Below are positions 2,130 through 34,185 of a stretch of DNA of 34,920 nucleotides, one piece after another (positions within the stretch are counted from its first letter, which is position 1; every line of letters begins with the position of its first letter). The DNA is from a bacterium (GTDB lineage Bacteria > Patescibacteriota > Minisyncoccia > Phycocordibacterales > GCA-002787175). The notes under the pieces were generated by a model. The model was not told where the DNA came from. It saw only the letters and a program-made list of their open reading frames with translations, and did not search any database. A program made the translations under genes and the position numbers. The stretch spans positions 1 through 34,920 of the forward strand of contig JAUYJM010000009.1 in NCBI GenBank assembly GCA_030689285.1. The letters run 5' to 3'.

Positions 2130-5100
2130 ATGAAATACAACCACTCTATTAAAATTACTCTCTCCATTCTTGTCACGATTCTCGGTGTTGCATTTTTTCT
2201 GCCAGAAACTACGTATGCCGCGACGGGGGATATCACAGCGGTGCGAATTACTCCTCATAGTGGAATCACAGACGGCTGGATGGCAGAGATAGACATAGAG
2301 GGCTTTGTGACGGGAGGGTCTGCGAACTACGGACTGGAAGAAGATGCTGATGCCAATACCATAGACAGCGACCCGGCGAACGCTAAAGTCATTTTGACGG
2401 GAACTTCTCCCGGATATAATACATCCGGAGTACTTGGGACAATCAGTCGCACGGTATATGGTACGAAAACAATCCGCAAACCGTATCCCGACAATACTTC
2501 AAGTGATCATTCCGCCATGGAAGAAGCCGAATCCGGAGGCACTCTCACTATCAAAGTCGCTCTCTCTGAATTCATCTATGACGAGGACACAGTTACCATC
2601 TCAATCTCCAATGGTTGGTACACAGACAGTGGAGCCGGAGGCACGAGTGGCACAAGTAACGCGGTGACCAATCTGGCAGTCACAAACAGCTCCGCGCTTT
2701 CATATCCCAAAACCATCGGCCGTTGGGCATGGCCCGGCTATGACCGAGTAACTGATGATTTTCTTGTTGAGGCCGTGATATTTCACAAATTTGCTCAAAA
2801 TGGCAAACCAGTGGCAGCAGTTGCTTTTGAAGCAAGTGACCAAAGTGGCAACACGGTTTATGCCACTACTACAGCCATGACAATAACCACGAGGACAGGC
2901 GATGCCAATGTCGTCCTTGTCTACGCCGCCACCATGGACATTGACGCTCTTACTCAAGGTGATGTTATTGATGTCAATTTCAAAGCGTATCCCTGGGTAG
3001 GAAATGCTGACTCAACTTTGGATTCACGCACAACTGCCGATGGTTTTGCACAGCCAGACGAACGCCTTGGTCCTTTACACTTTTTGAATGACAAAAGTGG
3101 AACATATGGCATTGGTTATGCTTTGGTATCAACTAACGGAGATGACAGCACCGGCACGGTCTATTCATCTCAAGTTGCCGCAGAAGCAGGAAACGCTTTT
3201 TTAACCATAGGGGGAGCAGGGGCGGCATTAAAGACATATCACAATACTAACCACAGCAGAAACAATGCCGGCGGAGGCATCATACTTCTCGCAGAAGGAG
3301 ACCATGCGTATCCCGGAACGCTCCCGGCTTCAGACCTTGGAACCGCTATGGATACATGGCTTATCATCAAGCCAGCTTCAACAGCAGAAAGACCCAATAC
3401 AAAAATCAGTCAAGGTGCCGGTCTTTCAGACACGCTAAAAGCGCTCCGAGTGAAAGTTGAGGGTATGACTTTGAGTCCGAGTGTTTCTTCAGGCAGTCAC
3501 AGCGGTTTTCGTGGGCGTCCAACAACAGATTCTTTATGGCTTCATAACAATACAATCAACGCGACTTCAAGCAATCCACTTCGCGGATGGATGACACTAT
3601 ATGCTACACAAAATGCCGTTACGGCTCTGACGAATGGTTTTATCGCTAATGTCGGAACTGTCAGGGGACCATTTGCGCTGGTGCGTGGCAATGATTCTAC
3701 CCCGCTTGTTACAAGTCATTTATACACGGTGCTGGGTAACAAGAATGTAACAAGCACGTTTCTTGAAGGATTTACATCACAAGCAGTAACCGTTTTAGGT
3801 ATGGCGACAAGTACCAATGCCATTTTCGCTTTCAATAGCATATATAACATGACTGGTTATGTGATCTGGTCGCAAGAGGACTCCACAGGGTTGGCCATAG
3901 TACAAAATGTCTTTGAGCGTGTTGCGGGTAATGATACTGGTGTCATGAATTTAAGTACTGGTACGGCCACGACTTCAAATGTTGTTGTCTGGCATAATAC
4001 CTTTACCGGAGACCGTCATCAGTGGGGGTACAATGACGAAGGTACTAAAAGCACCGCTAAATTGAATTGGGGGGAAAAGTTTAACATTTTTACTGAAAAA
4101 GGACAAAAAACCGACACATATGGACTTGAACCCAATGGGGTTCGTGTAGGTAATTGGCCGCTGGTGAATGGAGTTGGTTACATTGGAAATAAGAGTTTAA
4201 CAAGCTCTTTTGAGTGTGATTTTTGCGGACTTTTCGCTCAATGGGGGCCGACAGGTTCGTATTTAACATCTGGATTTACTAATGATAAGTCCAAAAATAC
4301 CGGATCAAATGACGGAGATGGGGATTATACGCTTACGGCGACTTCCAATTCAATTGACTCGGCCACAACAACATCTTCTTTTTACCAACTCCTCCCCTAC
4401 GACTTCCTCGGCAACCCCATCTACGGCTCTCCCGACTCCGGCGCCTACGAATACCAGCCACCCTACACCATGGGCACGCACAATGTTGCCACCTCATCTG
4501 TTGTTCGTATGTATGGCGATGAAAAATGGAGAGTGAAAACTGCCACAACCACAAGCGGCACGGCAGACCTTTCCATCACCATCCCCGGAAGCGACACCTC
4601 CGAATGGCTGGATGTAGAGGTCTCCCTTTGGAACACAAGTGGCACATATCAAAAAACCTGGACGGAGATGAGCAGTACGACGGGACTGACCAATACCGTC
4701 CATGTAGTTGGAGACCTACAAGCCAACAATTACTACACTGTCTCTGTTGATGGTGTTGCCGGCTCAAACATCACCGGAGACGACTGTACATCAGGCGTCT
4801 GTCTTTCCAACGGCTCCGGAGAGATTACTTTTACCTACACAGGCACCTACTCCGAACACGAGTTTGATATCACTGACGAAACCGCTCCCACCATCACCAA
4901 CGTCTCCTCCGACAAAGCCAACGGCACCTACACCACAGACGAGGTCATAGACATTGATATCACATTCTCCGAAACCGTAACCTCCACCGGAAACGTAACA
5001 GTAACATTAGATACAGGGCAAACCTGCACCTTTACTGTTACAGACAGCGCAACTGGCACCTGTAACTACACCGTGGTAGCAGACGACTCATCTTCTGATT

Positions 5101-6631: not shown

Positions 6632-8506
6632 ATGAGAAACATTAGAAACTTCTGCATTATCGCTCACATAGACCACGGCAAATCCACGCTTGCCGACAGA
6701 ATGCTTCAGGTTACCGGCACGATTCCGGAACGCAAGATGCGCGAGCAGGTTTTGGATGATATGGAGCTTGAGCGCGAGAGGGGTATTACCATAAAAATGA
6801 CCCCAGTCCGTATGATTTGGAGGCCAAATCATACGGACAAAATTCGCAATCCTTCATCTTTAATCCGTAACGAAGAAAGTCAAGGATTAAGGGTTAAAGA
6901 TGAAGGATTATCAGATTCAGAATGCTTCATTCTGAATCTGATTGACACTCCGGGTCACATTGACTTTGCTTACGAAGTTTCGCGTGCCCTAAAAGCGGTG
7001 GAAGGGGCGATTCTTCTCGTGGACTCCACTCAAGGCGTGCAGGCGCAAACGCTTTCGGTTTTAAGTATGGCAAAAAGCGCCGGACTGACTATAATCCCAG
7101 TCGTGTCAAAGGTGGATTCTCCCTACGCTCGCATAAGCGAATCAAAAGAAGAAATAGCAAAAATTTTAGAGTGTGACACAAAAGACATTTTGGAAGTATC
7201 GGGAAAGACCGGACAAGGCGTGACGGAGCTTTTGGACGTAATCGTACAAAAAGTGCCACCCCCGAGTTTTTTACCTGCAAGAGAAGACAACCAACTGCAA
7301 GCATTGGTATTTGACTTTGAATATTCCACTCATACGGGGGTAATAGTATATGTGAGAATTTTCAGCGGCAACGTAACGGGCAAAGAAAAACTTAGTTTCG
7401 CGGTCGCAAAGCGTGATTTTTCTCCAATTGAAATAGGAATATTTTCGCCTGACAGGGTTTTGTCAAAGCAGATTGCTTCCGGGGAAATAGGTTATATTGT
7501 GACGGGAATAAAAGAGCCCGGCGTGGCTTCAGTCGGAGACACGGTTGTTTTGTCAAAAGGGTTGCTTAAAGCTCTACCCGGATACGAGAGGCCGTCTCCG
7601 GTGGTTTGGGCCAGTGTGTATCCTGAAGATGCGGACGATTTCAACAGCTTAAGGCAGGCATTGGGGAAACTCCGTCTTTCAGATTCATCTTTTTCTTTTG
7701 AAGAAGAGTCATCGGGACTTTTGGGCAGGGGTTTTAGGTGCGGATTCTTGGGAATGCTCCACTTGGAGATTGTTACAGAACGGCTTCGCAGAGAATTTAA
7801 TCTGGAACTTGTGGTTACGACTCCGAGTATTACATACGAAATTACCACAAAAAGGGGCGAAAAAATAACTGCGTATTCGCCAATTCAGTTTCCCAGTTAT
7901 GGTGATATATCAGGTATAAAAGAGCCTTGGGTCAAGATACGCGTAATCACTCCGGCGGACTATCTTGGAGATATAACCCAGCTTTTATATAAGCATGAAG
8001 CGGTTTTGGGTGATACTTCAGATTTTGGAGATAACCGTTCGGAGATTTACGCCGAAATGCCTTTGAGAGAGCTTATGCGAGGTTTTTTTGACGAACTCAA
8101 AAGCGTTTCATCTGGTTTCGCCTCTCTTTCTTACGAGATGGCGGAGCTTAAGGACGCGGATGTTCTTCGTATGGATATACTTGTGGCGGACGAAATCGTA
8201 CCGGCTTTTTCAAGAGTTGTGTCAAAAAGAAAGGCGGAGGAAGAATCGGAATCGGCGGTTGAGAAGCTTTTTTCCATACTGCCCCGCCAAATGTTTGTGA
8301 CAAAAATTCAGGCTACCGCGATGGGCAGAATAATATCGTCAAAAACCTTGTCGGCTCTCAAAAAAGACGTTACAGGTTATCTTTACGGAGGAGATATTAC
8401 AAGAAAGAAAAAATTGTGGGAAAAACAAAAAAAGGGAAAAAAGAAGATGAAGGAAAGAGGAAAAGTCAACATCCCTCACGATGTGTTTGTGAAGATGATG
8501 AAATAG
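6632..8506 (+). CDS. lepA: Elongation factor 4 (LepA)
   Basis: MRNIRNFCIIAHIDHGKSTLADR, DTPGHIDF, GFRCGFLGMLHLEI and the C-terminal YGGDITRKKKLWEKQKKGKKKMK are LepA hallmarks. The start was chosen at the conserved MRNIRNF; an alternative ATG is at 6581. The upstream part of the ORF lies in repeat modules. Confidence 0.9.
   Translation: MRNIRNFCIIAHIDHGKSTLADRMLQVTGTIPERKMREQVLDDMELERERGITIKMTPVRMIWRPNHTDKIRNPSSLIRNEESQGLRVKDEGLSDSECFILNLIDTPGHIDFAYEVSRALKAVEGAILLVDSTQGVQAQTLSVLSMAKSAGLTIIPVVSKVDSPYARISESKEEIAKILECDTKDILEVSGKTGQGVTELLDVIVQKVPPPSFLPAREDNQLQALVFDFEYSTHTGVIVYVRIFSGNVTGKEKLSFAVAKRDFSPIEIGIFSPDRVLSKQIASGEIGYIVTGIKEPGVASVGDTVVLSKGLLKALPGYERPSPVVWASVYPEDADDFNSLRQALGKLRLSDSSFSFEEESSGLLGRGFRCGFLGMLHLEIVTERLRREFNLELVVTTPSITYEITTKRGEKITAYSPIQFPSYGDISGIKEPWVKIRVITPADYLGDITQLLYKHEAVLGDTSDFGDNRSEIYAEMPLRELMRGFFDELKSVSSGFASLSYEMAELKDADVLRMDILVADEIVPAFSRVVSKRKAEEESESAVEKLFSILPRQMFVTKIQATAMGRIISSKTLSALKKDVTGYLYGGDITRKKKLWEKQKKGKKKMKERGKVNIPHDVFVKMMK
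6808..6940 (+). repeat. Three consecutive palindromes embedded in-frame in the lepA G domain
   Basis: 6808-6836 has a perfect 11-bp stem (ccgtatgattt/aaatcatacgg). 6848-6909 is an imperfect long stem (aatccttcatctttaa.../...ttaaagatgaaggatt). 6912-6940 has a perfect 13-bp stem (cagattcagaatg/cattctgaatctg). The RGITIK to DTPGH segment is about 27 aa longer than in E. coli or B. subtilis LepA. Confidence 0.7.
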
Positions 8507-9494: not shown

Positions 9495-9565
9495 GCGGGT
9501 ATGGTTTAGTGGCAGAATGCGACCTTCCCAAGGTTGAGACGCGGGTTCGATTCCCGCTACCCGCA
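9495..9565 (+). tRNA. tRNA-Gly (anticodon CCC), CCA not encoded
   Basis: Manual cloverleaf: acceptor GCGGGTA/TACCCGC, D arm GTTTAGTGGCAGAAT region, anticodon stem CGACC/GGTTG with loop TTCCCAA, T arm GCGGG-TTCGATT-CCCGC. Confidence 0.9.
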
Positions 9566-9805
9566 AAAATAACGAGCGAAGCGAGTATATTTTTCGGGTA
9601 TAAAAAGCTCCCTAAGGAGCTTTTTAAGGGAAGCGAAGCCTTATTGAGCATAAAATTGAGTCCGTATTCGGACGAAAATTTTATCCAATAAGGGGACTGA
9701 ACATGTAATGTTCGATTCCCGCTACCCGCAAAAATAACGAGCGAAGCGAGTATATTTTTCGGGTATAAAAAGCTCCCTAAGGAGCTTTTTAAGGGAAGCG
9801 AAGCC
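9546..9805 (+). repeat. Direct duplication of the tRNA-Gly 3' end plus downstream flank (two identical-looking 95-nt copies, 9546-9640 and 9711-9805) around a 70-nt hairpin spacer
   Basis: Both copies read ttcgattcccgctacccgcaaaaataacgagcgaagcgagtatatttttcgggtataaaaagctccctaaggagctttttaagggaagcgaagcc. The spacer 9641-9710 folds as ttattg..ataaaatt..gtccgtattcggac..aaattttat..caataa. Confidence 0.9.
9767..9790. terminator. Bidirectional hairpin terminator (a copy also at 9602-9625)
   Basis: AAAAAGCTCCctaaGGAGCTTTTT lies 36 nt beyond the stop of the minus-strand PfkB gene. The first copy follows tRNA-Gly. Confidence 0.6.
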
Positions 9806-9825
9806 TCGTGAAGTGCGTTTCAGGG

Positions 9826-10818
9826 CTACAATTTTTTAGGCTTATAATCCTCAGGAGCGTTTTTGAGATATTCTTCCAGTTTTTGCCGCGAAAGCAGGCC
9901 TTTTTGGGCTCCAATTTCTTGCACCACCGACATAGAATTTATGGGACCCCACGAAAGGGCGGTTGGAATATCAAACCCTAAGGCAAGCGCGGAGGTAAAA
10001 GTCGCCGAGAAGGAATCGCCGGCTCCCGTTCTATCCACCGGAGGCGCGGGGTCTCTGTACATAGGGATAAACCATGTTTCTTTTTCATCCGAAGCGTAAG
10101 CTCCATGGGGCCCGTCAGTTATAACCGCGATTTTTGGACCAAGTTCTCTCATCTTTTGCAGAAGTATCTTAATGTCGTACTCTTTTGTCTCAAGAATTTT
10201 TTTGGCTTCTTCCTTGTTGCAGAAGAAAATTTCAGATGCTTCGTAAAGAGCCCTCAATTTTTCAAAACCGAGTTTTATCTGAAATGTTCCCGGCTGAAAA
10301 GCCATTTTTATACCGCTGTTTTTTACTCGGTCTGCCAGGACGAGTTGGTAGGACAGAGAATTTTCCGCAAGAGACGACAGGTATATCCACTTTGGCGCGG
10401 TGTCAAATTGCGGCAGTTTATATTCATATTTCTGATGCTTTACCAAGATGGTGCGTTCCTCCTTGAATCGCAGGACGAAATGATAATTTGACTTACGGCC
10501 AGCATGGACACTTACAAGGTCTGCCGCCACGCCTTCTTTTTGCAGAGCGGCGAGCTGTTCTTTGCCATACAAATCATCGCCCAAGTTGGAAATGAGAGCA
10601 GACGACAAGCCAAGACGGTGCGCCGCGACAGCCGCGTTCGGTGAATTGCCGACTGCCGGTACGACCACGATATCCCGATAGGGAATCTTGTCGCCAAATC
10701 GCATACAGAGCTCCTCGGTTTTTTCGGGGTTGTCTGTTTCAATCCAAGCGTCTTCCAATTCTATAAAAGCATCTGTTACAATATCACCAACGGCTACAAA
10801 ATCGTATTGGTTTTTCAT
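9826..10818 (-). CDS. PfkB-family carbohydrate kinase (ribokinase-like)
   Basis: 330 aa with N-terminal VAVGDIVTD and the C-terminal DRTGAGDSFSATFTSAL signature of the PfkB family. Confidence 0.85.
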   Translation of the reverse strand: MKNQYDFVAVGDIVTDAFIELEDAWIETDNPEKTEELCMRFGDKIPYRDIVVVPAVGNSPNAAVAAHRLGLSSALISNLGDDLYGKEQLAALQKEGVAADLVSVHAGRKSNYHFVLRFKEERTILVKHQKYEYKLPQFDTAPKWIYLSSLAENSLSYQLVLADRVKNSGIKMAFQPGTFQIKLGFEKLRALYEASEIFFCNKEEAKKILETKEYDIKILLQKMRELGPKIAVITDGPHGAYASDEKETWFIPMYRDPAPPVDRTGAGDSFSATFTSALALGFDIPTALSWGPINSMSVVQEIGAQKGLLSRQKLEEYLKNAPEDYKPKKL

Positions 10819-15195: not shown

Positions 15196-15376
15196 GTGTT
15201 TATTTAGGTGTCCAACCTCCAGAAATTTTGCAAAAAGTGTGGTGTAATGCGTATTGAGTCATTTTAAACAAGTCCAAATATGCCGGCGAGGCGAGTAAAA
15301 ATGGAGAATTAAAGCCGTTTTTCTGGAGGTGTTGAGAGTTACAGTGGTAAGAGTTGCAATACGACAATGTTTCTGG

Positions 15377-19025: not shown

Positions 19026-20564
19026 ATGGGAAATTTTCAAAGGACATCATACTTTCACGCTGGCCGGGCTAGCGAACTCCAGTCTGGCGACCGAATCCTC
19101 TATAGGATGCTCGAAATACTTCCCGGAACGCTGTCTTGGGGTACGCTTATTCTGGCTGTTTTACTTTCGTATTTCACGCCTGTATTGGCGGCTATTTTTA
19201 TAATAGCTTTTGATTTGTACTGGCTTTTGAAGACGATTTATCTTTCCGCTCACTTGAGAAGCAGTTGGAGAAGAATGCGCCACCATATGAATTTGGACTG
19301 GGAGAAAATGCTGGAACCCTTTACATATGGGCGCATTTTTCATCTTGTCATTCTGCCTTTTTACGACGAATCGGAAGATGTGGTTGACAAAAGCATACAC
19401 TCACTCCTTTCCTCAAAATACGACACCAAGAAGATAATAGTGGTTTTGGCGAGCGAAGAAAGGGCCGGAGAGGCGGCTAGGCAGACAGGCCGAAAAATGG
19501 CTATAAAATACGGCCAATCTTTTTACAGATTTGCCTTGACTGTCCATCCGAAAAATCTTCCTGGGGAGATGGCCGGCAAGGGTTCAAATATCTCTTTCGC
19601 GGCCAGATATGCCAAAGAGAATATCCTAGACAAAGAAAAAATTCGTTACGAAGACGTACTGGTTTCTGCTTTTGACATTGACACGGCGCCATACCCGCAA
19701 TATTTTTTGTGTCTGACGTGGCACTACTTGACTGCCGAAAGACCTTCTCGTTCTTCATTTCAACCAGTGCCTCTTTATAATAATAATATCTGGGATGCTC
19801 CCGCGATTTCCCGCGTAGCCGCCTTGTCCGCCACTTTTTGGCAGATGATACAGCAGGAAAGGCCTGAAAAGTTGGCGACTTTTTCCTCTCACGCGCTTTC
19901 TTTCCGTGCCCTTTATGACATCGGCTTTTGGCAGAAGAATATTGTATCGGAGGACTCCAGAATTTTCTGGAACGCCCTTCTTGCTTTTGACGGCGATTAT
20001 CGCGTGGTGCCGATTTCCTACCCTGTGTCCATGGATGCCAATCTGGCGCCGACTTTATGGCAAACCGTAAAAAATATTTACAAACAGCAACGCAGGTGGA
20101 CTTGGGGAGTAGAAAATGTGCCGTATTTGCTGTTTGGATTTTTGAAAAACAAAAAAATTCCCAAACTTCTGCGTTTTCGCCTGGGCTTCGTCCAACTTGA
20201 AGGGTTCTGGTCTTTAGCCACAAACCCGCTCATCATTTTTCTTTTAGGCTGGATGCCCCTTATTTTAGGAGGAGAAGAATTTAACGCCACCGTGCTTTCT
20301 TATAATCTGCCTCTTATAACGAGAAACATAATGACTCTGGCTATGGTAGGACTTGTGGTATCGGCTCTCATCTCATGGAGTTTTCTACCCAAGAGGCCGG
20401 CTCATTATGGCAAGAAACGGGTTGTCTATATGGCTCTGCAGTGGGTTTTGGTGCCGATAATGCTTGTGTTCTTCGGATCCATACCCGGACTTGATTCGCA
20501 AACACGGCTTATGTTCGGCAAGTATATGGGATTTTGGGTGACGCCTAAACACCGTAAGTCTTGA
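19026..20564 (+). CDS. Integral-membrane processive family-2 glycosyltransferase (cellulose/chitin-synthase-like)
   Basis: 512 aa with multiple TM segments. GT-A core features are ILPFYDES, AGKGSNISF and the SAFDID D-x-D region, plus the Q-x-x-R-W motif (QQRRWTWG). Confidence 0.7.
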   Translation: MGNFQRTSYFHAGRASELQSGDRILYRMLEILPGTLSWGTLILAVLLSYFTPVLAAIFIIAFDLYWLLKTIYLSAHLRSSWRRMRHHMNLDWEKMLEPFTYGRIFHLVILPFYDESEDVVDKSIHSLLSSKYDTKKIIVVLASEERAGEAARQTGRKMAIKYGQSFYRFALTVHPKNLPGEMAGKGSNISFAARYAKENILDKEKIRYEDVLVSAFDIDTAPYPQYFLCLTWHYLTAERPSRSSFQPVPLYNNNIWDAPAISRVAALSATFWQMIQQERPEKLATFSSHALSFRALYDIGFWQKNIVSEDSRIFWNALLAFDGDYRVVPISYPVSMDANLAPTLWQTVKNIYKQQRRWTWGVENVPYLLFGFLKNKKIPKLLRFRLGFVQLEGFWSLATNPLIIFLLGWMPLILGGEEFNATVLSYNLPLITRNIMTLAMVGLVVSALISWSFLPKRPAHYGKKRVVYMALQWVLVPIMLVFFGSIPGLDSQTRLMFGKYMGFWVTPKHRKS

Positions 20565-21902: not shown

Positions 21903-22718
21903 ATGGTTGATTTTCAATCAAAAGGAAAGATACATCCTATAGAGAGGGCTATATATGATAGTCGAGCTATCTTTAAACGACTCGGCTTTGATGTTGCAAT
22001 CGGACCGGAAATGGAAGATGAGTGGCATAACTTTGACGCGCTTAACATTCCAAAAGAGCATCCGGCTAGAGATATGCAGGACACTTTTTGGCTGAAACAG
22101 CCAAAAAGTGAATCCTTAATCGTCAATCCTTCATCCTTAAATGAAGAACCAAAAAGTGAACCAGAGGTAGATTCTTTGAGTAAAGGATTAAAGATTAAGG
22201 ATAAAGGATTATTATTAAGAACTCATACAAGTCCTGTTCAGATACGTTATATTGAACAGAAATTGAAAGAAGGCATAGATCCGCCATATAAAATAATAGC
22301 GCCGGGAAAAATTTTTAGAAACGAGGCTACTGACGCGACTCATGAGGCGCAGTTTTTTCAGATTGAAGGGCTTTACGTAAATAAAAAAGTCAATATGGCA
22401 GAGCTTAAGGGCACACTGCTTTACTTTTTGAAGGAATTTTTCGGTGATGAAGAAATTGAGGTCAGGTTTCGGCCAAGCTTTTTTGCTTTTACGGAACCGT
22501 CCGCGGAAGTGGATATGCACTCTAAGGATAAGTGGCTTGAAATGGGGGGAGCCGGACTGGTCCACCCCAATGTTTTGAAAAACGCCGGACTCGGCGGCGA
22601 TAAGTACCAAGGATTCGCCTTCGGTATGGGGCTTGACCGGCTGGTGATGCTCAAGTACGGCATACCGGATGTCAGGATGTTTTATAACGGCGACTTGAGG
22701 CTGGTGAATCAGTTTTAA
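21903..22718 (+). CDS. pheS: Phenylalanine--tRNA ligase alpha subunit (minimal form lacking the N-terminal coiled coil)
   Basis: HPIERAI, HNFDALNIPKEHPARDMQDTFW, LLRTHTSPVQIRY, FRNEATDATHEAQFFQIEG and GFAFGMGLDRLVML. Confidence 0.9.
   Translation: MVDFQSKGKIHPIERAIYDSRAIFKRLGFDVAIGPEMEDEWHNFDALNIPKEHPARDMQDTFWLKQPKSESLIVNPSSLNEEPKSEPEVDSLSKGLKIKDKGLLLRTHTSPVQIRYIEQKLKEGIDPPYKIIAPGKIFRNEATDATHEAQFFQIEGLYVNKKVNMAELKGTLLYFLKEFFGDEEIEVRFRPSFFAFTEPSAEVDMHSKDKWLEMGGAGLVHPNVLKNAGLGGDKYQGFAFGMGLDRLVMLKYGIPDVRMFYNGDLRLVNQF
22084..22210 (+). repeat. Palindromic element embedded in-frame in pheS, homologous to the lepA element
   Basis: 22084-22108 has a perfect 11-bp stem (ctttttggctg/cagccaaaaag). 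The stretches caatccttcatccttaa and aaggattaaagattaaggataaaggatta are near-identical to lepA 6847-6863 and 6882-6910. They are read in the same frame (NPSSL ... GLKIKDKGL). The DTFW to LLRTHTS spacing is 39 aa versus 4 aa in E. coli PheS. Confidence 0.7.
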
Positions 22719-26202: not shown

Positions 26203-26305
26203 ATACAGTTCATGAAAGAGGGCATAATGGCTTTCTCTGTGTTTGAATTTGTGATTTGAATATTGTCTGGAGCTTGTTTCTTGGAGATTGAAATTTATAA
26301 AAGTT

Positions 26306-29300
26306 ATGGTTAAACCAACAGAAAAGGACAAAAAATCGAACGGACCCTCCTCCGCTAAAGCTACAGCGGGCAAGGCGGGTCATCATTACAGCGCGCAGGA
26401 CATTCAGGTTTTGGAGGGGCTTGAGCCGGTACGGAAGCGTCCGGGTATGTATATAGGCACTACCGGTCCAGACGGACTCCACCATCTCGTAACCGAGATT
26501 TTTGACAATTCCCGCGATGAAGCTATGGGCGGTTTTGCCAATGATGTGGAAATCGTTCTTTTGCCGGATAACCGCGTGAGGGTTGCGGACAACGGTCGCG
26601 GTATTCCCGTAGATACTCACAAACAGACAAAAGTTTCCGCTTTGGAGACGATTATGACTACTCTCCATGCCGGAGGTAAATTTGGAGGAGAAGGATACAA
26701 GGTTTCAGGAGGACTTCACGGAGTCGGCGCTTCTGTCGTAAACGCTCTATCCGTCCATATGAAAGTCACGGTGCACCGAGATGGCGGTGTGTACACGCAA
26801 GAGTACACGCGTGGCAAGAAAGACGCGACGGTTAAAAAAGTCGGCAAAAGCGACAAACAAGGAACCATCGTCACGTTTCAGCCAGACGAACAGATTTTTA
26901 AAGAGATAGGATTCAATTTTGACAGAATTGTCTCTCATATGAGAGAGCAAGCATATCTTGTAAAAGGTCTCCGTATTTCAGTAATTGATGCTCGGGAACT
27001 GCAGCTTGAAGACGGAGGAACAGACAGTATTTTTTATTTCCGAGAGCTCGGCCTAGACGCTAAATCGCAATCCTTCTGTTTTGAAGGAGGGCTTTTATCA
27101 TTGGTTAAATTTTACAATCAGCTGTGGAAACCTGTCCATAAGAAAATTTTTTATATTGAAAAAGCGGGCGAAGGAGTGGAATCTGTGGAAGTGGCTTTGC
27201 AATATGTAGACGACATATCCTCGCGGATTATGGCGTTTGCAAACAACATCGCAAATCCTGAAGGGGGAACGCACTTGACAGGTTTTAAAACCGCTCTTAC
27301 TCGGACATTGAACAACTACGCTCGTAAAAATAACGTAGTAAGGGAAAGCGAGGAAAACTTTACTGGAGATGACGTGCTTGAGGGACTTACTGCCGTTATA
27401 TCCGTAAAACTTAGGGAGATTCAATTTGAAGGGCAGACAAAAGCAAAGCTAGGCAGTGTAGAGGCGCAAGGAGCCGTGACTGCCGTTTTTGGTGACGCTT
27501 TCTCCGGATTTCTTGAAGAGAATCCTGAAGACGCGCGGGCCATTATAGGAAAAGCCCTCCTTGCTCTCAAAGCTAGAAAAGCGGCCAAGGCGGCAAAAGA
27601 CAGCGTCCTTAGAAAAGGGGCGCTTGAAGGAATGACACTGCCCGGCAAACTGGCCGACTGTGAGACGAAAAATGCATCGGAGTCCGAACTCTTTATAGTG
27701 GAGGGAGATTCGGCCGGTGGATGTTTTGACGGTGATACAAAAGTCGCTCTTGTTGATGGGAGAAATCTTTCATTTAAGGAGTTAATTGAAGAGCATAAAG
27801 AGGGTAAACAGAATTTTTGCTATACGATTGATTCTCAAGATATAAAGATAGCACCCATTATGCATCCGAGGGTTACCAAACAAAATGCTGAAGTTGTAAA
27901 AGTCATTCTGGATAACAGAGAAGAGATTATATGTACTCCGGAACATAGATTTATGATTAGAGACGGTTCATACAAACAGGCGATAAACTTAACGGAAGAT
28001 GACTCTCTTATGCCTCTCGTTCGTAAACTTTCCGAAATTCGCGGAAGGATTACAATAAAGGGCTATGAAATGGTTCTAAACCCAGAAAATTCTCATTGGA
28101 AATTTACTCATGTCCTTTCTGATGATTACAATTTGGGACGGGAAACATACGTCAAGGAAAAGAATACTGTCATCCACCATAAAGATTTCAATAAATTAAA
28201 CAATCATCCCGATAATCTGGTTCGTATGGATCACTGGGCTCATTTTTGGTATCACACGACATGCCTTGAAGAGACAATCCATCGTGCTGATGTGAAGGAA
28301 AAATGCCGAAAAATCAGACAGACCTCTGAATATCGCGAAAAAATAAGCAAAGTGATGCTAAAACCGGAAGTGCGTGAGCTCTTGAGCGAGCGAGCGAAAA
28401 AGCAGTGGGAAAATCCGAAATATAAAAAATTCATGACCGCTAAATTCCTTGAATTTTACGAAAACAACGAGCAATATCGTGAAGAGAACAACAAGCGTCT
28501 AAATAAAGAACAGAAAAAATACTGGTCCTTGGGTGAAAATAAAGTCAAACAGTCAAAACGCGTGACTAAATTCTTTGAGGATCATCCCGAACATAAAAAA
28601 TTCTTGAAGGACTTATCGGAAACGCAATGGAAAGACGAGTCTTTAATTAGATGGCGAAGAGAGGAAACTAAAAAACAGTGGACTCCGGAGTTTAGGGCAA
28701 AAAGAAAAATTGCATATGCTCGCACGTATCTTAATAAGGCGCTTGCCTCCTTGTATGAAATATATAAAAGAAAAGGAGCTGTTGATGAGGTTTCTTATAA
28801 TGAGCTTCGCAGGGAGAAAAACGATAAGTCCTTAATCCGTTTTGAAACTATTTGCAATAGGTTCTTTGAAGGAAACGAGAACGCTTTTAAGGAGGCAATC
28901 ATGAATTTTAACCATAGGATTAAAAAGGTTGAAGTTCTTTCTAAGAAAATAGATGTGTACGACATTGAGGTCCCACAAACTCACAATTTCGCCCTTGCGA
29001 GCGGGGTATTTGTTCATAATTCCGGAAAAATGGGAAGGGACAGAAGAACTCAAGCCGTACTGCCTCTTAAAGGTAAAATCTTAAACGTGGAAAGAGCGCG
29101 GCTGGACAAAATTCTCGGCTTTGCGGAAATAAAATCTCTGGTTATCGCGCTCGGAACCGCCATAGGAGACACGTTTGACGTATCAAAACTTCGCTATCAC
29201 AAAATTATAATCGCCACGGATGCCGATACGGACGGCGGGCATATACGCACTTTGCTTCTAACTCTGTTTTACAGGTACTTCAAGCCGCTTATTGAGGGGG

Positions 29301-29740
29301 GCTTTATATATATAGCTCAACCGCCGCTTTATAAAATAAAAAGAGGCAAAGAAGTCTTTTACTTTTTTACCGAAGAGGAAAAAAGTTCTTTCTATGAGAG
29401 AGAAGGAATTGAAGTAAAGGAGGAGGAAGAAACGGAAGGAACCGACGACCGAGAACCTTCAAATGGCACAGAGGAAATGGCAGAAGGGGAAGAAGACGCA
29501 TCGGCGGCAAAAGGAAAAACGCAGAAAATACAGGTGCAAAGATACAAAGGTCTGGGCGAAATGAATCCTGAAGAGCTTTGGGAGACAACGATGGATCCCG
29601 AAAAAAGAATTTTAAAACAGGTAACCATAGAGGATGCTAACGAAGCAGACAAGGTATTTGACATCTTGATGGGTACGGATGTACCGTCAAGAAAGTCTTT
29701 CATTCAGTCAAACGCCACGAAAGCGACATTGGATATATAA
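26306..29740 (+). CDS. gyrB: DNA gyrase subunit B precursor, interrupted by an intein
   Basis: YSAQDIQVLEGLEPVRKRPGMYIG and GGLHGVGASVVNALS are present. ELFIVEGDSAGG is followed by the intein, then SGKMGRDRRTQAVLPLKGKILNVE. Further on are IIIATDADTDGGHI, RYKGLGEM and the C-terminal LDI. Confidence 0.9.
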   Translation: MVKPTEKDKKSNGPSSAKATAGKAGHHYSAQDIQVLEGLEPVRKRPGMYIGTTGPDGLHHLVTEIFDNSRDEAMGGFANDVEIVLLPDNRVRVADNGRGIPVDTHKQTKVSALETIMTTLHAGGKFGGEGYKVSGGLHGVGASVVNALSVHMKVTVHRDGGVYTQEYTRGKKDATVKKVGKSDKQGTIVTFQPDEQIFKEIGFNFDRIVSHMREQAYLVKGLRISVIDARELQLEDGGTDSIFYFRELGLDAKSQSFCFEGGLLSLVKFYNQLWKPVHKKIFYIEKAGEGVESVEVALQYVDDISSRIMAFANNIANPEGGTHLTGFKTALTRTLNNYARKNNVVRESEENFTGDDVLEGLTAVISVKLREIQFEGQTKAKLGSVEAQGAVTAVFGDAFSGFLEENPEDARAIIGKALLALKARKAAKAAKDSVLRKGALEGMTLPGKLADCETKNASESELFIVEGDSAGGCFDGDTKVALVDGRNLSFKELIEEHKEGKQNFCYTIDSQDIKIAPIMHPRVTKQNAEVVKVILDNREEIICTPEHRFMIRDGSYKQAINLTEDDSLMPLVRKLSEIRGRITIKGYEMVLNPENSHWKFTHVLSDDYNLGRETYVKEKNTVIHHKDFNKLNNHPDNLVRMDHWAHFWYHTTCLEETIHRADVKEKCRKIRQTSEYREKISKVMLKPEVRELLSERAKKQWENPKYKKFMTAKFLEFYENNEQYREENNKRLNKEQKKYWSLGENKVKQSKRVTKFFEDHPEHKKFLKDLSETQWKDESLIRWRREETKKQWTPEFRAKRKIAYARTYLNKALASLYEIYKRKGAVDEVSYNELRREKNDKSLIRFETICNRFFEGNENAFKEAIMNFNHRIKKVEVLSKKIDVYDIEVPQTHNFALASGVFVHNSGKMGRDRRTQAVLPLKGKILNVERARLDKILGFAEIKSLVIALGTAIGDTFDVSKLRYHKIIIATDADTDGGHIRTLLLTLFYRYFKPLIEGGFIYIAQPPLYKIKRGKEVFYFFTEEEKSSFYEREGIEVKEEEETEGTDDREPSNGTEEMAEGEEDASAAKGKTQKIQVQRYKGLGEMNPEELWETTMDPEKRILKQVTIEDANEADKVFDILMGTDVPSRKSFIQSNATKATLDI
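27722..29020 (+). mobile_element. 433-aa intein with HNH homing-endonuclease module in the GyrB Toprim motif (EGDSAGG / S)
   Basis: It starts CFDGDTKVALVDGR (block A, Cys1) and ends NFALASGVFVHN followed by Ser (+1). The internal HHKDFNKLNNHPDNLVRMDHWAH is an HNH motif (about 28168-28260). The terminal blocks closely resemble the Synechocystis GyrB intein as recalled. Confidence 0.9.
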
Positions 29741-29794: not shown

Positions 29795-30240
29795 CACCTC
29801 TTATTCCCCCTTTCCTACCGCGTGCCGCCAGAGCTTTAGCGGTGGCGCAAAGGGGTGTCACATTCTTATGTGACGGAGGATGAAAATCCCTCCTGCATAA
29901 GAATGCAGTGCTCCCTTTACTCCCACCCCTCACCCTCGCCCCGTTAGAAACTTTGTTTCTAACGGGGCTCGCTGACTCGGGAGGTCAAAAGTATTTTTCT
30001 GGCTGGAAAAATCTTTCAACCCTGCCTCGCGCCGTCGCGCTCCGGCCTTGCGGAAGCTCCAAGTGTTCGCTTCCTCACCCCTCTGGCAGGGGAGCATGGG
30101 AGAATAAATCCCTCCCCCTAGCCCCGTTAGAAGCGAAGTTTCTAACGGGGCTCGCCGACTCGGGTACTCCCTTCCCGCGCTACGCCGTAGGATTCGGCGA
30201 GGCGAGTACAAAAGGGAGAATTAAAACCATTCATCGGGGG
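29795..30240. repeat. ~445-bp intergenic region built entirely of mosaic hairpin modules
   Basis: Modules X (29801-29857) and Y (29858-29893) match 6494-6587 inverted. Two copies of the hairpin CCCCGTTAGAA..TTCTAACGGGG are at 29939-29967 and 30122-30150. 29986-30079 matches 1611-1704 inverted. 30196-30228 (ggcgaggcgagtacaaaagggagaatta) recurs at 15286-15312 and 34131-34165. Confidence 0.8.
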
Positions 30241-30339
30241 GTGTGGAGAGTTACCTGGAATAAGTTTGCGCGTTTTTGATTTTTGTGTTATTCTGGCCAG
30301 CGGAAATTCAACGAAAGGAAACTTGTGGAAGAAGACAAA

Positions 30340-30627: not shown

Positions 30628-30650
30628 CGATTGACCTCTAATAATGAGCG

Positions 30651-30679
30651 CCGGCGAGATTTATTCTCGCCGGTTTTTT
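30651..30679 (+). terminator. Rho-independent terminator
   Basis: CCGGCGAGatttattCTCGCCGG followed by TTTTTT. Confidence 0.8.
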
Positions 30680-30687
30680 GTTATACT
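30679..30687 (+). promoter_or_regulatory. Extended -10 (TGtTATACT) placing the predicted TSS on the dnaE ATG (leaderless candidate)
   Basis: TGTTATACT ends 6 nt before the ATG at 30694. No Shine-Dalgarno sequence is present. Confidence 0.35.
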
Positions 30688-30693
30688 GATGCA

Positions 30694-33600
30694 ATGTCCG
30701 GATTTGCGCATCTCCATACTCATAGCCATTATTCGCTTCTCTCCGGCCTTCCGAAAATTCCGGAGCTTGTCAAGGCGGCTAGAGATGACGGACAGACCGC
30801 TCTTGCTCTTACGGATAACGGAAACCTCTATGGCGCCATAGAATTCTACAAAGAATGCGGAAAACAAGGCATAAAACCGCTCATAGGCATTGATGCTTAC
30901 GTTGCGGCGCGCACTCGGCATGATAAGCAGGCGGGAATAGACAATCGCCGCACGCGTCTTATACTTCTCGCGAAAAATCAGCAAGGTTATAAAAATCTCA
31001 TAAAACTCGTCACCGACTCGCATTTGGAGGGCTTTTACTACAAGCCGCGCGTTGACCGCGAGCTTTTGGAAAAGTACTCTGAAGGTCTTATCGCTATCTC
31101 TCCTTCATTCAGTTCTGAAATCGTAAAAAGCTTGCAAATTGACGATTTTGAAAAGGCGGTCCAAATCGCGAATTGGTACAGACAGATATTCGGCAAAGAA
31201 AATTTTTTCCTTGAAATTACGCGGCATCCGGAAATAGACGGTCACGAAAAAACGATGGAGAAACTCGTCTCTTTCGCCAAAGACAATGTTTTGCCTCTTG
31301 TGGCCTCTCAAGACGTATATTACCTATCTCCCGAAGACAGGAAAGCCAGAAACACTCTGACTTTGGTTATGAGCAACCGTGAGCTTTCCGACATAAGCGA
31401 GGGAGGAGAGGCCGCTGACTTTTCGTTTATAAGCCAAAAACAGGCAATAAATCTTTTTCAAGATATTCCAGACGCGCTCAAAAATACGATAAAGATAGCG
31501 GAGATGTGCGACTTGAATCTGGAACTCGGTAATTGGCTTTTTCCAAATTATGTAGTAGAAAGCAAGCTTTCTTATGACGATGAACTTAGGAAAGTCGTTT
31601 TTGAGGGTTTTGATTCGCGCGGCGTTGAGAGAAGCAAAGAGACACTGGAGAGGGTTGAGTATGAACTGTCGGTTATAAAAGCGAAGGGTTACGCGCCATA
31701 TTTTCTGGTGGTTGGAGACTTGATACGAGAAGCGCATAAAAGAGGAATCCTAACCACGATCAGAGGGTCGGTTGCCGGTTCTTTGGTTACTTATCTTGCC
31801 AAAATTACGAATGTAAACCCGATAGTATACAAACTTCCATTTGAAAGGTTTTTAAATCCCGAGAGGCCTTCGGCGCCGGATATAGATATGGACTATGCCG
31901 ATAACAGGAGGGACGAAATGATTGAATATGCCAAGGAAAAATACGGCAGAACTTTTGTGGCGCAGATCGGGACTTTCGGCACTATGATGGCGCGTGGCAG
32001 TGTGCGTGATGTGGCTCGCGCTCTCGGATTTGAGTACGGCGTGGGAGACAGAATCGCAAAGCTCATACCGATGGGCTCCCAAGGGTTTCCAATGTCCATA
32101 GACAGGGCGCTCGAAATTGTCGGCGAACTTAAGGAGATTTACAAAAAGGAAAAAGACGCACGGGAGATAATAGACACGGCCAGAAAAATTGAAGGTTGTG
32201 CCAGACATATTTCAGTCCATGCCGCCGGAGTAGTCATTTCTCCCGTTCCTCTTACAGAAGTTACTCCGCTTCAGCTTGACCCCAAGGGCGAAGGCAAAGT
32301 CATCACCCAGTACGATATGTACTCCATAGACGAAAACAACGCGGGACTTTTAAAGTTTGATTTTTTGGGAATAAAAAATCTGTCAATTCTGGCTGAAGCA
32401 GTGGCTTTGACGGAAAAAATGGAAGGAGTAAAAATAGACATTGAAAACGTGCCCGTGGATGACAAGAAAACTTTTGAAATGCTTGCTCTGGGCGAGACCG
32501 GCGGACTTTTTCAGCTAAACGGAAGCGGTATGACGCGGTTTCTAAAGGACCTAAAACCAAACAACATCCACGATATAAACGCTATGGTGGCGCTTTATCG
32601 TCCGGGACCCATGGAGTCTATTCCCGAATACATTCAAAGAAAGCACAATCCTCGGCTTGTGAAATATCTTGATTCAAGAATGTCAGACATTCTTAGCGAA
32701 TCGTACGGTGTTATAACCTATCAGGATGATGTGCTTATGCTCGCCATCAAGCTCGCTGGATACTCGTGGCTTGAGGTAGATAAACTGCGAAAAGCTATGG
32801 GTAAAAAAATTCCCAAAGAAATGGAGGCGCAGAAAAGAAAGCTCATTGACGGGTTTATGGGTTTTGGGAAACTGTCTAAAGAAAAAGGGGATAAACTTTG
32901 GAGTCTTATAGAGCCATTTGCCGCCTATGGTTTCAATAAAGCCCATGCCGCAAGCTATGGCAAAGTAGCGTATCAGACGGCGTATATGAAAGCAAACTTT
33001 CCAGCTATTTATATGTCAGCGGTTTTAACGGCTGATTCCGGAGACATTGATAAAATCGGAGAAATCATCGCCGAATGCGACAGAATGGGAATACCGGTGT
33101 TGCCGCCAGATATCAATGAAAGTTACTCCGGCTTTACCGTAGTAAAACTGGAAAATTCCAAGCTCCAAGAAACAAGTTCCAAACAAATTCCAAATCCCAA
33201 ACATAATACATTAAACCCCGAACATCTTTCTGAACGCTATACGCTAAACGCTGACTCTTCTGACCGTATCCGCTTTGGACTGACGACTATTAAAAACTTT
33301 GGGGAAGGAATCGCAAACGCGATAATTAAAGAACGCGAAGAAAATGGAAAGTTTAAGTCGCTGGGCGATTTTTTGTCGCGCATTAAAGACAAAAATCTAA
33401 ACAAGAAGTCCGTTGAAGCTCTTATAAAAGCCGGCGCGGTGGACGCCTTCGCGGACAGAGGAGTTATGTTTGCAAATTTGGAACAAATTCTGGAATTCCA
33501 CAAAGAAAAAGCTCAAGCGGATGGAAGCCAAGACTCGCTTTTCGGTTCTTTGCCTGAAGGCCAGAGCGACGATATTGTCCTTAAGGACTCTCCGATGGCC

Positions 33601-33984
33601 TCGCAGTCTGAGAAACTCTCATGGGAAAAGGAGCTTTTAGGACTTTATATTTCCGGCCATCCGCTTGATAAATACCGCGCCGTTTTGGGAAAACGTGAAG
33701 ACAACATAAAAAAAATAAAGGAAGAAGCCAAAGAAGGAATGACAACCGTTATAGGAGGGATTATAGAAGAAATGAAGCCGATACTTACCAAGAAAAACGA
33801 GCAAATGGCCTTTGCGCGGCTTGCCGATTTTACCGGAGCCATAGAGGTTGTGATTTTTCCGAGGGTGCTCGCGGAGTTTAAGAATATATTGAAGGCGGAC
33901 AAATGTGTGGCAATAAAAGGACGCGTTTCAAATAGAAACGGCGAGGTGAGCATTATTGCCGAGAAAGCGAAAGAACTTGCGTAG
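30694..33984 (+). CDS. dnaE: DNA polymerase III alpha subunit
   Basis: The PHP N-terminus is MSGFAHLHTHSHYSLLSG. Also present are PDIDMDY, GLLKFDFLGIKNLS, FNKAHAASYG and a C-terminal OB fold. The start is at the conserved FAHLH region. Confidence 0.9.
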   Translation: MSGFAHLHTHSHYSLLSGLPKIPELVKAARDDGQTALALTDNGNLYGAIEFYKECGKQGIKPLIGIDAYVAARTRHDKQAGIDNRRTRLILLAKNQQGYKNLIKLVTDSHLEGFYYKPRVDRELLEKYSEGLIAISPSFSSEIVKSLQIDDFEKAVQIANWYRQIFGKENFFLEITRHPEIDGHEKTMEKLVSFAKDNVLPLVASQDVYYLSPEDRKARNTLTLVMSNRELSDISEGGEAADFSFISQKQAINLFQDIPDALKNTIKIAEMCDLNLELGNWLFPNYVVESKLSYDDELRKVVFEGFDSRGVERSKETLERVEYELSVIKAKGYAPYFLVVGDLIREAHKRGILTTIRGSVAGSLVTYLAKITNVNPIVYKLPFERFLNPERPSAPDIDMDYADNRRDEMIEYAKEKYGRTFVAQIGTFGTMMARGSVRDVARALGFEYGVGDRIAKLIPMGSQGFPMSIDRALEIVGELKEIYKKEKDAREIIDTARKIEGCARHISVHAAGVVISPVPLTEVTPLQLDPKGEGKVITQYDMYSIDENNAGLLKFDFLGIKNLSILAEAVALTEKMEGVKIDIENVPVDDKKTFEMLALGETGGLFQLNGSGMTRFLKDLKPNNIHDINAMVALYRPGPMESIPEYIQRKHNPRLVKYLDSRMSDILSESYGVITYQDDVLMLAIKLAGYSWLEVDKLRKAMGKKIPKEMEAQKRKLIDGFMGFGKLSKEKGDKLWSLIEPFAAYGFNKAHAASYGKVAYQTAYMKANFPAIYMSAVLTADSGDIDKIGEIIAECDRMGIPVLPPDINESYSGFTVVKLENSKLQETSSKQIPNPKHNTLNPEHLSERYTLNADSSDRIRFGLTTIKNFGEGIANAIIKEREENGKFKSLGDFLSRIKDKNLNKKSVEALIKAGAVDAFADRGVMFANLEQILEFHKEKAQADGSQDSLFGSLPEGQSDDIVLKDSPMASQSEKLSWEKELLGLYISGHPLDKYRAVLGKREDNIKKIKEEAKEGMTTVIGGIIEEMKPILTKKNEQMAFARLADFTGAIEVVIFPRVLAEFKNILKADKCVAIKGRVSNRNGEVSIIAEKAKELA

Positions 33985-34017: not shown

Positions 34018-34185
34018 TTTGTAGGACCTTACGCACCTAATCTTATTTCTCCCTCTCGTACTCGCCTCGCTCGTCTTGCGTAACTACGCTTCGGCGTAGC
34101 CACGCCGAAGCCTACGGCGTAGCGCGGGTTGGCGAGGCGAGTAGAAAATGAGGAATAAGAAAAGCAACAAATTGCAGTAAGTCCT
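34018..34185. repeat. ~165-bp imperfect palindrome between convergent dnaE and the pilin gene, sharing modules with 30170-30228
   Basis: Arms are cttatttctccctctcgtactcgcctcgc / ggcgaggcgagtagaaaatgaggaataag. The inner part is gcttcggcgt / acgccgaagc (perfect 10 bp). Confidence 0.65.

Follow-up and report, generated by a model that had tools for sequence, protein, structure and literature searches.

We analyzed a 34,920-nt contig (JAUYJM010000009.1 of GenBank assembly GCA_030689285.1; hereafter the window) from a Taylorbacteria-like bacterium of the Parcubacteria/Paceibacterota (the annotation of the best PheS homologues), in which the pheS gene (21903-22718, forward strand) carries about 105 nt of extra in-frame DNA, equivalent to 35 stop-free codons. 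Two modules make up this non-autonomous insert: a junction hairpin, in which the neighboring host codons recur in inverted form, and a central hairpin with arms composed of arrayed 7-nt units. It belongs to a class of such inserts that occupy indel hot spots beside strongly conserved motifs of Parcubacteria housekeeping genes (pheS, lepA, dnaE, pheT and leuS). The origin that we favor, with a probability of roughly one half, is template switching combined with slippage during replication, the products of which would have been tolerated in a disordered surface loop.

According to its open reading frame (ORF) and translation, pheS encodes a 271-aa protein, the short form of the candidate phyla radiation (CPR). 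The Pfam domain PF01409 is present in homologues of this protein, which also matches PheS chains in the PDB. The product reads DTFW-LKQPKSESLIVNPSSLNEEPKSEPEVDSLSKGLKIKDKG-LLRTHTS, and the translation agrees with a preliminary description of this DNA in counting 39 residues between the two motifs. That description gave 4 residues between the same motifs of Escherichia coli PheS; alignment with structure 3PCO gives 5, and query residues 66-102 have just two counterparts there, chain residues 162-163. In an AlphaFold2 model built with 51 homologues the PheS core is confident. Across residues 61-110, a range that includes the whole insert, means of the predicted local distance difference test score over 10-residue blocks are 44-51, and most individual residues fall below 50. 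The insert is most simply a disordered loop at the surface, which the enzyme would tolerate.

The junction hairpin (22082-22110, forward strand, as are all features of the two inserts) has the form CACTTTTTGGCTG aaa CAGCCAAAAAGTG. Its outer arm (22082-22094) is host sequence, namely the codons of (D)TFWL, the 3-nt loop (22095-22097) is the Lys codon aaa, and the inner arm (22098-22110) is an inverted copy of the host codons that is read as QPKS. A perfect hairpin at this left junction, with TFWL in the outer arm and an inverted inner arm, had been described before with a stem of 11 bp; the hairpin is there, and its perfect stem is 13 bp. The central hairpin follows directly. Its 5' arm (22111-22140) has the sequence AATCCTT AATCGTC AATCCTT CATCCTT AA and reads (E)SLIVNPSSL, and its 3' arm (22183-22210) has the sequence AAGGATT AAAGATT AAGGATA AAGGATT and reads GLKIKDKGL. 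The arm unit is 7 nt long, AATCCTT on the 5' side and AAGGATT on the 3' side, arrayed in opposite polarity; the segments 22125-22140 and 22195-22210 are 94% complementary. Between the arms lie a loop and filler (22141-22182) that are longest in the window genome: the filler has 12 codons here, and 8, 1 and 0 in the orthologous loci L001, L005 and L208, respectively. The sequence CCAAAAAGTGAA occurs twice in the insert, in the inner junction arm (22101-22112) and again in the filler (22149-22160).

The lepA gene of the window contains a sister copy. Its central hairpin (6848-6909) has arms at 6848-6870 and 6887-6909 that are 91% complementary, and it is flanked by two junction hairpins of 15 bp each, a left one (6806-6838) whose outer arm comprises the VRMIW codons and whose inner arm reads PNHTD, and a right one (6910-6942) whose inner arm reads SDSE and whose outer arm comprises the ILNLI codons. 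Perfect hairpins of at least 10 bp are expected 0.55 times per 35-kb dinucleotide shuffle; within the genes of the contig there are only three, i.e., the pheS junction and the two lepA junctions. Folded as RNA, pheS gives a z-score of -5.4 and lepA one of -10.6. The earlier claim that the two inserts share two sequence blocks is borne out. The block AATCCTTCATCYTTAA is found without mismatch at 6848 and 22125, all its matches with up to 2 mismatches lie in the pheS and lepA loci, and so do 9 of the 11 matches with up to 3 mismatches (1.25 expected). The other is a 34-nt block (6878-6911 and 22179-22212) with 85% identity. Local alignment of the inserts scores 39, higher than every one of 2000 dinucleotide shuffles (16.4 ± 2.7), while either insert scores at most 29 against the remainder of the contig. 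In each insert the two shared blocks are inverted repeats of one another and form the central hairpin. Together with the translations, this alignment confirms homologous palindromic in-frame DNA in two unrelated essential genes.

A pure 7-nt array would hold TAA in every frame within 21 nt. In the inserts this stop is broken differently in each copy, as GAT-GAA in lepA and GAT-AAA in pheS, with TCA in place of TAA in the 5' arms; for example, the sequence has a C replacing A at 22132, which destroys the TAA expected of a pure array. The avoidance of TAA by different substitutions in each copy shows that both the pheS and lepA inserts are read through by the ribosome and translated. Any stop-free reading of the array yields SLILNP(S/L)SL and GL(K/R)IKD(E/K/Q)GL. 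The preliminary description had pointed to the common frame and peptides of the two inserts. The peptides are indeed in frame in both, but since a 7-nt array cycles through three frames per 21 nt, the shared frame follows from the period and adds no independent evidence for a common origin.

The junction hairpin had been taken as part of the palindromic element. Comparison with relatives assigns it instead to the site, because it recurs with at least four unrelated central sequences and even with almost none: at locus L137 a weakly pairing inverted copy of the flank (NPKG) stands with almost no central sequence, possibly the first-step state of insert formation. Seven pheS loci, which between them have four different central sequences, all keep the junction stem, with 94.6% of cells paired. 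Its covariation (0.173) exceeds that of shuffles (0.075; 0 of 500 as high), and the double changes, i.e., ctg/cag, ttg/caa, ctc/gag and gtc/gac, are compensatory at pairs 16-24 and 18-22. The stem also leaves a signature in the protein. Proline (cca, the complement of tgg) is the fourth residue after Trp in 40 of the 61 distinct long PheS loops and in 0 of the 34 short ones, and the residue after Trp pairs with the residue two further on according to reverse-complement codons (L-Q/E, I-N/D and V-D/N), a pattern also seen in 0 of 34 short loops. For lepA, the left and the right stem are each kept in four orthologues with 4 compensated positions, all of which are Watson-Crick and lie at synonymous or conservative sites of the host. 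Overall, the junction stems of both genes are almost wholly Watson-Crick with few G-U pairs, and the pairing of the pheS and lepA inserts has been maintained over time. Adjacent reverse-complement copies with perfect stems were also found in L128, L212, L148, L207, L209, L210 and L211, reaching 16 bp in L128 and L212. In L148 the stem axis is offset by 1 nt, which argues for independent formation of the junction hairpin there.

The pheS site is a hot spot for inserted sequence. Among the 120 closest homologues the PheS loop ranges from 6 aa in minimal forms (DTFWVKGGKLLRTHTS) to 42 aa, and 61 of the 95 distinct loops of Parcubacteria homologues are long (16-42 aa), many with unrelated sequences; NPLSL..GLKIKD, NFQFPISNFQ, SEIRNPKSETN and AERTQNNAE..SQRDSASSQR are mutually unrelated examples. 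Minimal Parcubacteria PheS and most PheS sampled from other bacteria have loops of 6-8 aa, and lengths of 6 and 8 aa are the commonest among 80 pheS loci from metagenome contigs, mostly non-Parcubacteria, in which the only long loops (at least 20 aa) from close relatives are those of L127, L128, L138 and L148. Sequences that form no hairpin also fill the site, e.g., an (AATTTCC)4 array in L127 and the insert of L138. The lepA loop, between PVRM and YILNLIDTPGH, likewise ranges from 15-19 aa in minimal forms to 64 aa.

Several further observations concern the hairpins of housekeeping genes. Perfect hairpins of 13-16 bp occur in L148 at 2756-2792, where the stem lies on LHAFDL codons in a 688-codon ORF beside pheS (probably pheT) and is followed by an IRNPKSEI insert; in L211 at 4665-4701, at a second lepA site; and in L128 at 3221-3256 and 3757-3786, both within a 662-codon ORF. 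Those of L148 and of the second lepA site are junction hairpins. In dnaE of L212, the RIR codons of DRIRFGL carry a junction hairpin of 10 bp. In the window, dnaE (30631-33984) contains a third in-frame low-complexity insert, KLENSKLQETSSKQIPNPKHNTLNPEHLSERYTLNADSS, directly before DRIRFGL; 50 nt of this insert (33152-33201) are the reverse complement of intergenic sequence (26248-26296) upstream of gyrB, 6.9 kb away, with a local score of 61 against 17.7 ± 3.0 for shuffles (0 of 2000 as high). The lepA gene of L207 is called as a 192-aa product (390-968) followed by a separate gene (1083-1640); it may be split or frameshifted, or reflect an assembly error in a low-coverage contig.

The 7-nt unit is spread far beyond these genes. 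When AAGGATTAARGRTTAARGAT was scanned in one genome per species, it matched at least 120 loci in many phyla, mostly as intergenic tandem arrays. Of 127 array clusters among the matches listed, 14 are accompanied by an inverted partner no more than 140 nt away and 13 are situated within long open frames. Both features are combined, among the same matches, in a LeuRS gene (L099, ...CRKRVENQKSLILNPSQTKSLKIKDKGLRIQHF...) and a 431-codon ORF (L076), both in frame and in other CPR genomes. An AATCCTT/AAGGATT hairpin also stands in an intergenic region of a Parcubacteria genome (L111). Insert units are shared between hot spots of one genome: in L212, the pheS insert (10211-10246) and the dnaE insert (about 19950-19990, minus strand) share 33 of 36 nt of AACTTACAACCGAC, a unit of 14 nt (2 x 7) that differs from the one in the window and is in frame in both genes as LTTDNLQ(P/L)TT, with a score of 57 against 14.9 ± 2.4 for shuffles. 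The in-frame copies in LeuRS and the L076 ORF and the sharing within L212 support the proposal of a dispersed repeat that invades coding sequence. As a primary explanation, a CPR-specific transposon was rejected, given that the 7-nt core occurs in many phyla and mostly in intergenic arrays. A profile search with eight insert peptides gave only one weak match (E = 6.5), because a profile of 30 columns and low complexity is unable to attain significance in a set of 5.8 billion proteins.

With regard to the arrays themselves, (AAGGATT)n arrays often end a few bases 5' of an ATG, and the AAGGA core resembles a Shine-Dalgarno sequence. Array loci in many phyla include L043 (1273-1327), L081 (6378-6397), L028 (6182-6201), L013 (563-582) and L086 (5348-5374). 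Adjoining arrays use other 7-nt units, such as GGGATTA, GGACTAA, AATTCGT and AGTGTTT.

The pheS copy had been described as active or recently active, which its distribution does not support. Three orthologous pheS genes (L001, from a Taylorbacteria metagenome-assembled genome; L005, from Greene0416_79; and L208) share the insert with identical boundaries. They are 69-75% identical to the window PheS in host amino acids, and 77-83% identical among themselves. As three such diverged orthologues carry the insert at the same boundaries, these sequences point to an old, vertically inherited copy rather than a recent one. The lepA version of the insert is also found in the lepA of L207. A comparison of PheS orthologues had been suggested earlier to establish how widely the insert occurs, and the result is twofold: relatives that are 61-66% identical to the window PheS lack the insert and have loops of 6-9 aa (e.g., VKGGK and IKPREDGM), but the three orthologues carry it at the same position. 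We made no use of a neighbor-joining tree of 119 PheS sequences with the loop masked, since its resolution was too poor for counting gains and losses.

At third codon positions the insert is more conserved than the gene around it. Over columns where all four orthologues have the same amino acid, third-position identity is 90% for the 17 columns of the insert and 43% for the 135 of the host gene. Most of the 17 lie in the inner junction arm or in either arm of the central hairpin. RNAalifold analysis of six copies gave a consensus stem of 19 pairs, six of which covary. This covariation comes mostly from L209, in which the arms consist of an AAAAGTT-type unit and the loop AACGAAGAAAGTCAA is retained. 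Similarly, the loop AACGAAGARAGTCAA is conserved across three lepA orthologues, one of which has different arms.

We infer a template-switch mechanism for the insert. In the proposed sequence of events, the nascent strand would fold back during replication and copy itself, a template-switch mutation that leaves a perfect junction hairpin. This hairpin would then predispose the site to slippage and ectopic template switching, by which 7-nt arrays and inverted copies may enter and expand. Repeated switching from arm to arm would preserve complementarity, such that a synonymous change in the host is copied into the inner arm. The copies that survive would be those with a length that is a multiple of 3 and without TAA, translated into a disordered surface loop, and once fixed the insert would be inherited vertically. 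The best fit is with template switching, for which the formation of perfect stems out of neighboring sequence and the fixation of pairing through multi-base changes are documented: it can create a perfect stem in one event, with multi-base compensatory changes that keep the pairing (PMC8794818), and in yeast it has been shown to affect coding sequence as well (PMC8604942). What characterizes such hairpins is present here, namely an adjacent reverse-complement copy with a perfect stem (13, 15 and 15 bp) and paired compensatory changes. The local second copy of the inner arm at 22149-22160 is also counted in its favor.

Several points weigh against this origin. The arms keep their identity at third positions while host sites are near saturation, yet switching preserves complementarity and not sequence; arm conservation therefore needs an extra cause, which could be nucleotide-level selection, array homogenization or a spread later than the host genes suggest. 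The 7-nt period is left unexplained by template switching. Transfer between loci is likewise unexplained; presence of the unit at distant loci needs ectopic rather than local switching. No enzyme deficiency or activity was identified that would predispose Parcubacteria to such events.

A broader and more tentative possibility, to which we give perhaps a minor share of credence, is an undescribed structure-directed process in Parcubacteria, or perhaps in Patescibacteria. Here, hairpins made of host codons would mark or create the sites, hairpins built of genome-specific 7-nt repeats would be copied between them, and a dedicated enzyme or a role in mRNA would actively maintain both pairing and sequence. 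By analogy, an mRNA role might be programmed pausing or hairpin-triggered processing, comparable to the SOS splicing of animals that is triggered by inverted terminal repeats (PMC11870413).

Somewhat unlikely in our assessment is a palindromic element similar to the Rickettsia palindromic elements (RPEs) or to MITEs (miniature transposable elements with inverted repeats), mobilized in trans by an enzyme encoded elsewhere in the genome and inserted into permissive loops, with the junction hairpins as a by-product of insertion or as a target structure. It would account for homologous copies in unrelated genes of one genome, for genome-specific units common to several hot spots and for the hairpin that appears in frame in LeuRS and another ORF, and also between genes, in other CPR genomes. 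An insert more conserved than the synonymous sites of its host looks as if it had spread after the hosts diverged, and the RPEs demonstrate that such a lifestyle exists (PMC10969869). It is harder to reconcile with the boundaries of the central hairpin: its flanks, which read AGTG/ATTA in pheS and TCGC/ATCA in lepA, contain no target-site duplication, and the ends are not conserved outside the 7-nt repeat. The identical boundaries in four orthologues imply inheritance or extreme site specificity, and L137 shows that junction hairpins exist with little or no element. Copies are few in the sampled DNA, with 2 central hairpins in the 35-kb window and 1 each in the 20.8-kb L001 and the 9.9-kb L005. 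Among the ORFs of the 35-kb contig, no gene for a transposase, RAYT, HUH or IS200-type protein was found.

A similarly doubtful alternative, rated slightly lower, is a selected nucleic-acid structure that would serve in ribosome pausing, mRNA protection, protein binding or the hiding of AAGGA repeats that resemble Shine-Dalgarno sequences. The strongly negative folding z-scores of both inserts, the covariation in junction and central hairpins, the third-position identity of the insert and the retention of the AACGAAGARAGTCAA loop despite differing arms are all consistent with such selection. Relatives of comparable similarity (61-66% identity), however, do without the insert, the same site hosts many unrelated sequences including the non-hairpin ones of L127 and L138, and near-pure Watson-Crick stems with few G-U pairs fit DNA-templated copying better.

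Selection on the protein is improbable. In this case the peptide NPSSL...GLKIKDKGL would be an adaptive insertion, e.g., a lineage-specific interaction loop on PheRS and EF4, and its conservation in four PheS and two LepA orthologues is what one would expect. But conservation reaches synonymous positions (90%), every reading of the 7-nt unit that lacks stops automatically yields the peptide, disorder is predicted for the insert, dozens of unrelated peptides occupy the same site, and the same DNA is intergenic in L111. Perfect short inverted duplications are a known signature of chimeras, but an inverted sequencing chimera or other assembly or amplification artefact has a negligible chance, as the same architecture occurs in independent assemblies from ENA, JGI, NCBI and Logan, the orthologue P0005 is present on 42 contigs and in 76 assembly-index blocks, and frame and stop-freeness are kept throughout.

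The analogy with Rickettsia drawn in the preliminary description is apt, in that in-frame palindromic inserts occupy unrelated genes here too. Like the inserts of Parcubacteria, RPEs are palindromic, lie in frame in unrelated and often essential genes, are translated, are compatible with function, are conserved at orthologous sites and have no known transposase (PMC10969869). The likeness is one of architecture (arms 90-94% complementary, stable predicted hairpins). RPEs are about 150 bp long, fall into ten sequence families that have a conserved peptide and, in a single alphaproteobacterial genus, reach dozens of copies per genome, whereas the Parcubacteria inserts measure 70-105 nt and have arms of simple 7-nt arrays and a low known copy number. 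Furthermore, their junctions are inverted host codons, a feature for which we found no report in RPEs. RPE membership by descent is unlikely because the host belongs to the Parcubacteria/Paceibacterota. In the literature, we found no description of this insert architecture in CPR, and we regard the insert as an RPE-like variant whose host-codon junctions are an architecture for which no description was found.

Other known systems share single features with the insert. Template-switch hairpins (Monttinen and Loytynoja 2022) resemble it in having a reverse-complement copy beside the template and compensated pairing (PMC8794818), but that study deals with RNA genes and with short events in the ORFs of yeast (PMC8604942), without recurrent in-frame inserts of 30-40 codons at hot spots of bacterial enzymes or dispersed 7-nt hairpins. 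MITEs and the repetitive extragenic palindromes (REPs) and their inverted pairs (REPINs) are likewise short, non-autonomous, hairpin-forming and dispersed in bacterial genomes, and are sometimes joined in frame to ORFs. MITEs are flanked by target-site duplications, which are absent here, and end in inverted repeats that match an insertion sequence; the insert arms are inverted repeats, and no transposase gene was found among the ORFs of the 35-kb contig. REPs are extragenic and have a GTAG/CGTC tag and a RAYT gene (PMC3733652), whereas the copies described here are intragenic, have ends of the form AATCC.../...GGATT and have no RAYT in the contig. Heptanucleotide repeats of bacteria, such as the short tandemly repeated repetitive sequences of cyanobacteria and TAACTGA of Beggiatoa, consist of tandem 7-nt units as do the pheS arms; they lie mostly between genes, are abundant in certain lineages and have no known function (PMC4679880, PMC4692102). 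Those repeats are direct and intergenic, while here arrays of opposite polarity form a translated hairpin in coding sequence. Finally, palindromic amphipathic repeat coding elements (PARCELs) are dyad-symmetric, translated coding DNA that has spread within and between genomes (PMC2996958), but they form 25-residue domains in tandem, within ORFs that have no known function and often encode membrane proteins, and are not single inserts in loops of conserved enzymes.

Searches of the window against Rfam at gathering thresholds, and of the locus at E ≤ 1, returned two tRNAs and chance-level matches to plant microRNA hairpins, and no family for the insert. An intron or intein was rejected as an explanation, as the insert is too small (35 codons) and translated, with stop codons specifically removed. 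Among 20 window ORFs scanned (pheS and lepA not among them), the only Pfam intein match is in gyrB.

If the pattern is genome-wide, selfish or mutation-driven palindromic DNA would systematically enter essential coding sequence outside Rickettsia, and would do so in a lineage of tiny genomes where extra bases are usually thought costly. The junction hairpins also provide a natural experiment in which the creation of hairpins and the upkeep of their perfect pairing can be followed: protein function pins one arm, so that a mirrored synonymous change in the free arm is a visible compensatory event. On the practical side, the inserts inflate alignment gaps in PheS, LepA, DnaE and LeuRS, which serve as markers in CPR phylogeny, and they can be mistaken for lineage-specific protein features.

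The genes of the window are ordinary housekeeping genes and include lepA, pfkB, fba, rplY, prfA, rpsB, tsf, pheS, pheT, gyrB and dnaE. The intein of gyrB (26288-29740) corresponds to the Pfam Intein_splicing match at residues 487-911, and the gyrB of L001 also bears an intein. A perfect 97-nt direct repeat (9545-9641 and 9710-9806) begins within the 3' end of a tRNA gene (9495-9565), and each copy contains a terminator-like hairpin; the repeat looks like a partial tRNA duplication, as after an integration event. In addition, a dispersed intergenic repeat family occupies at least five sites (208-254, 1464-1713, 15285-15356, 29927-30254 and 34043-34161). It includes a 121-nt inverted pair (1593-1713 and 29977-30097) with 86% identity, and its members share motifs such as GGCGAGGCGAGTA...GGGAGAATTAAA.

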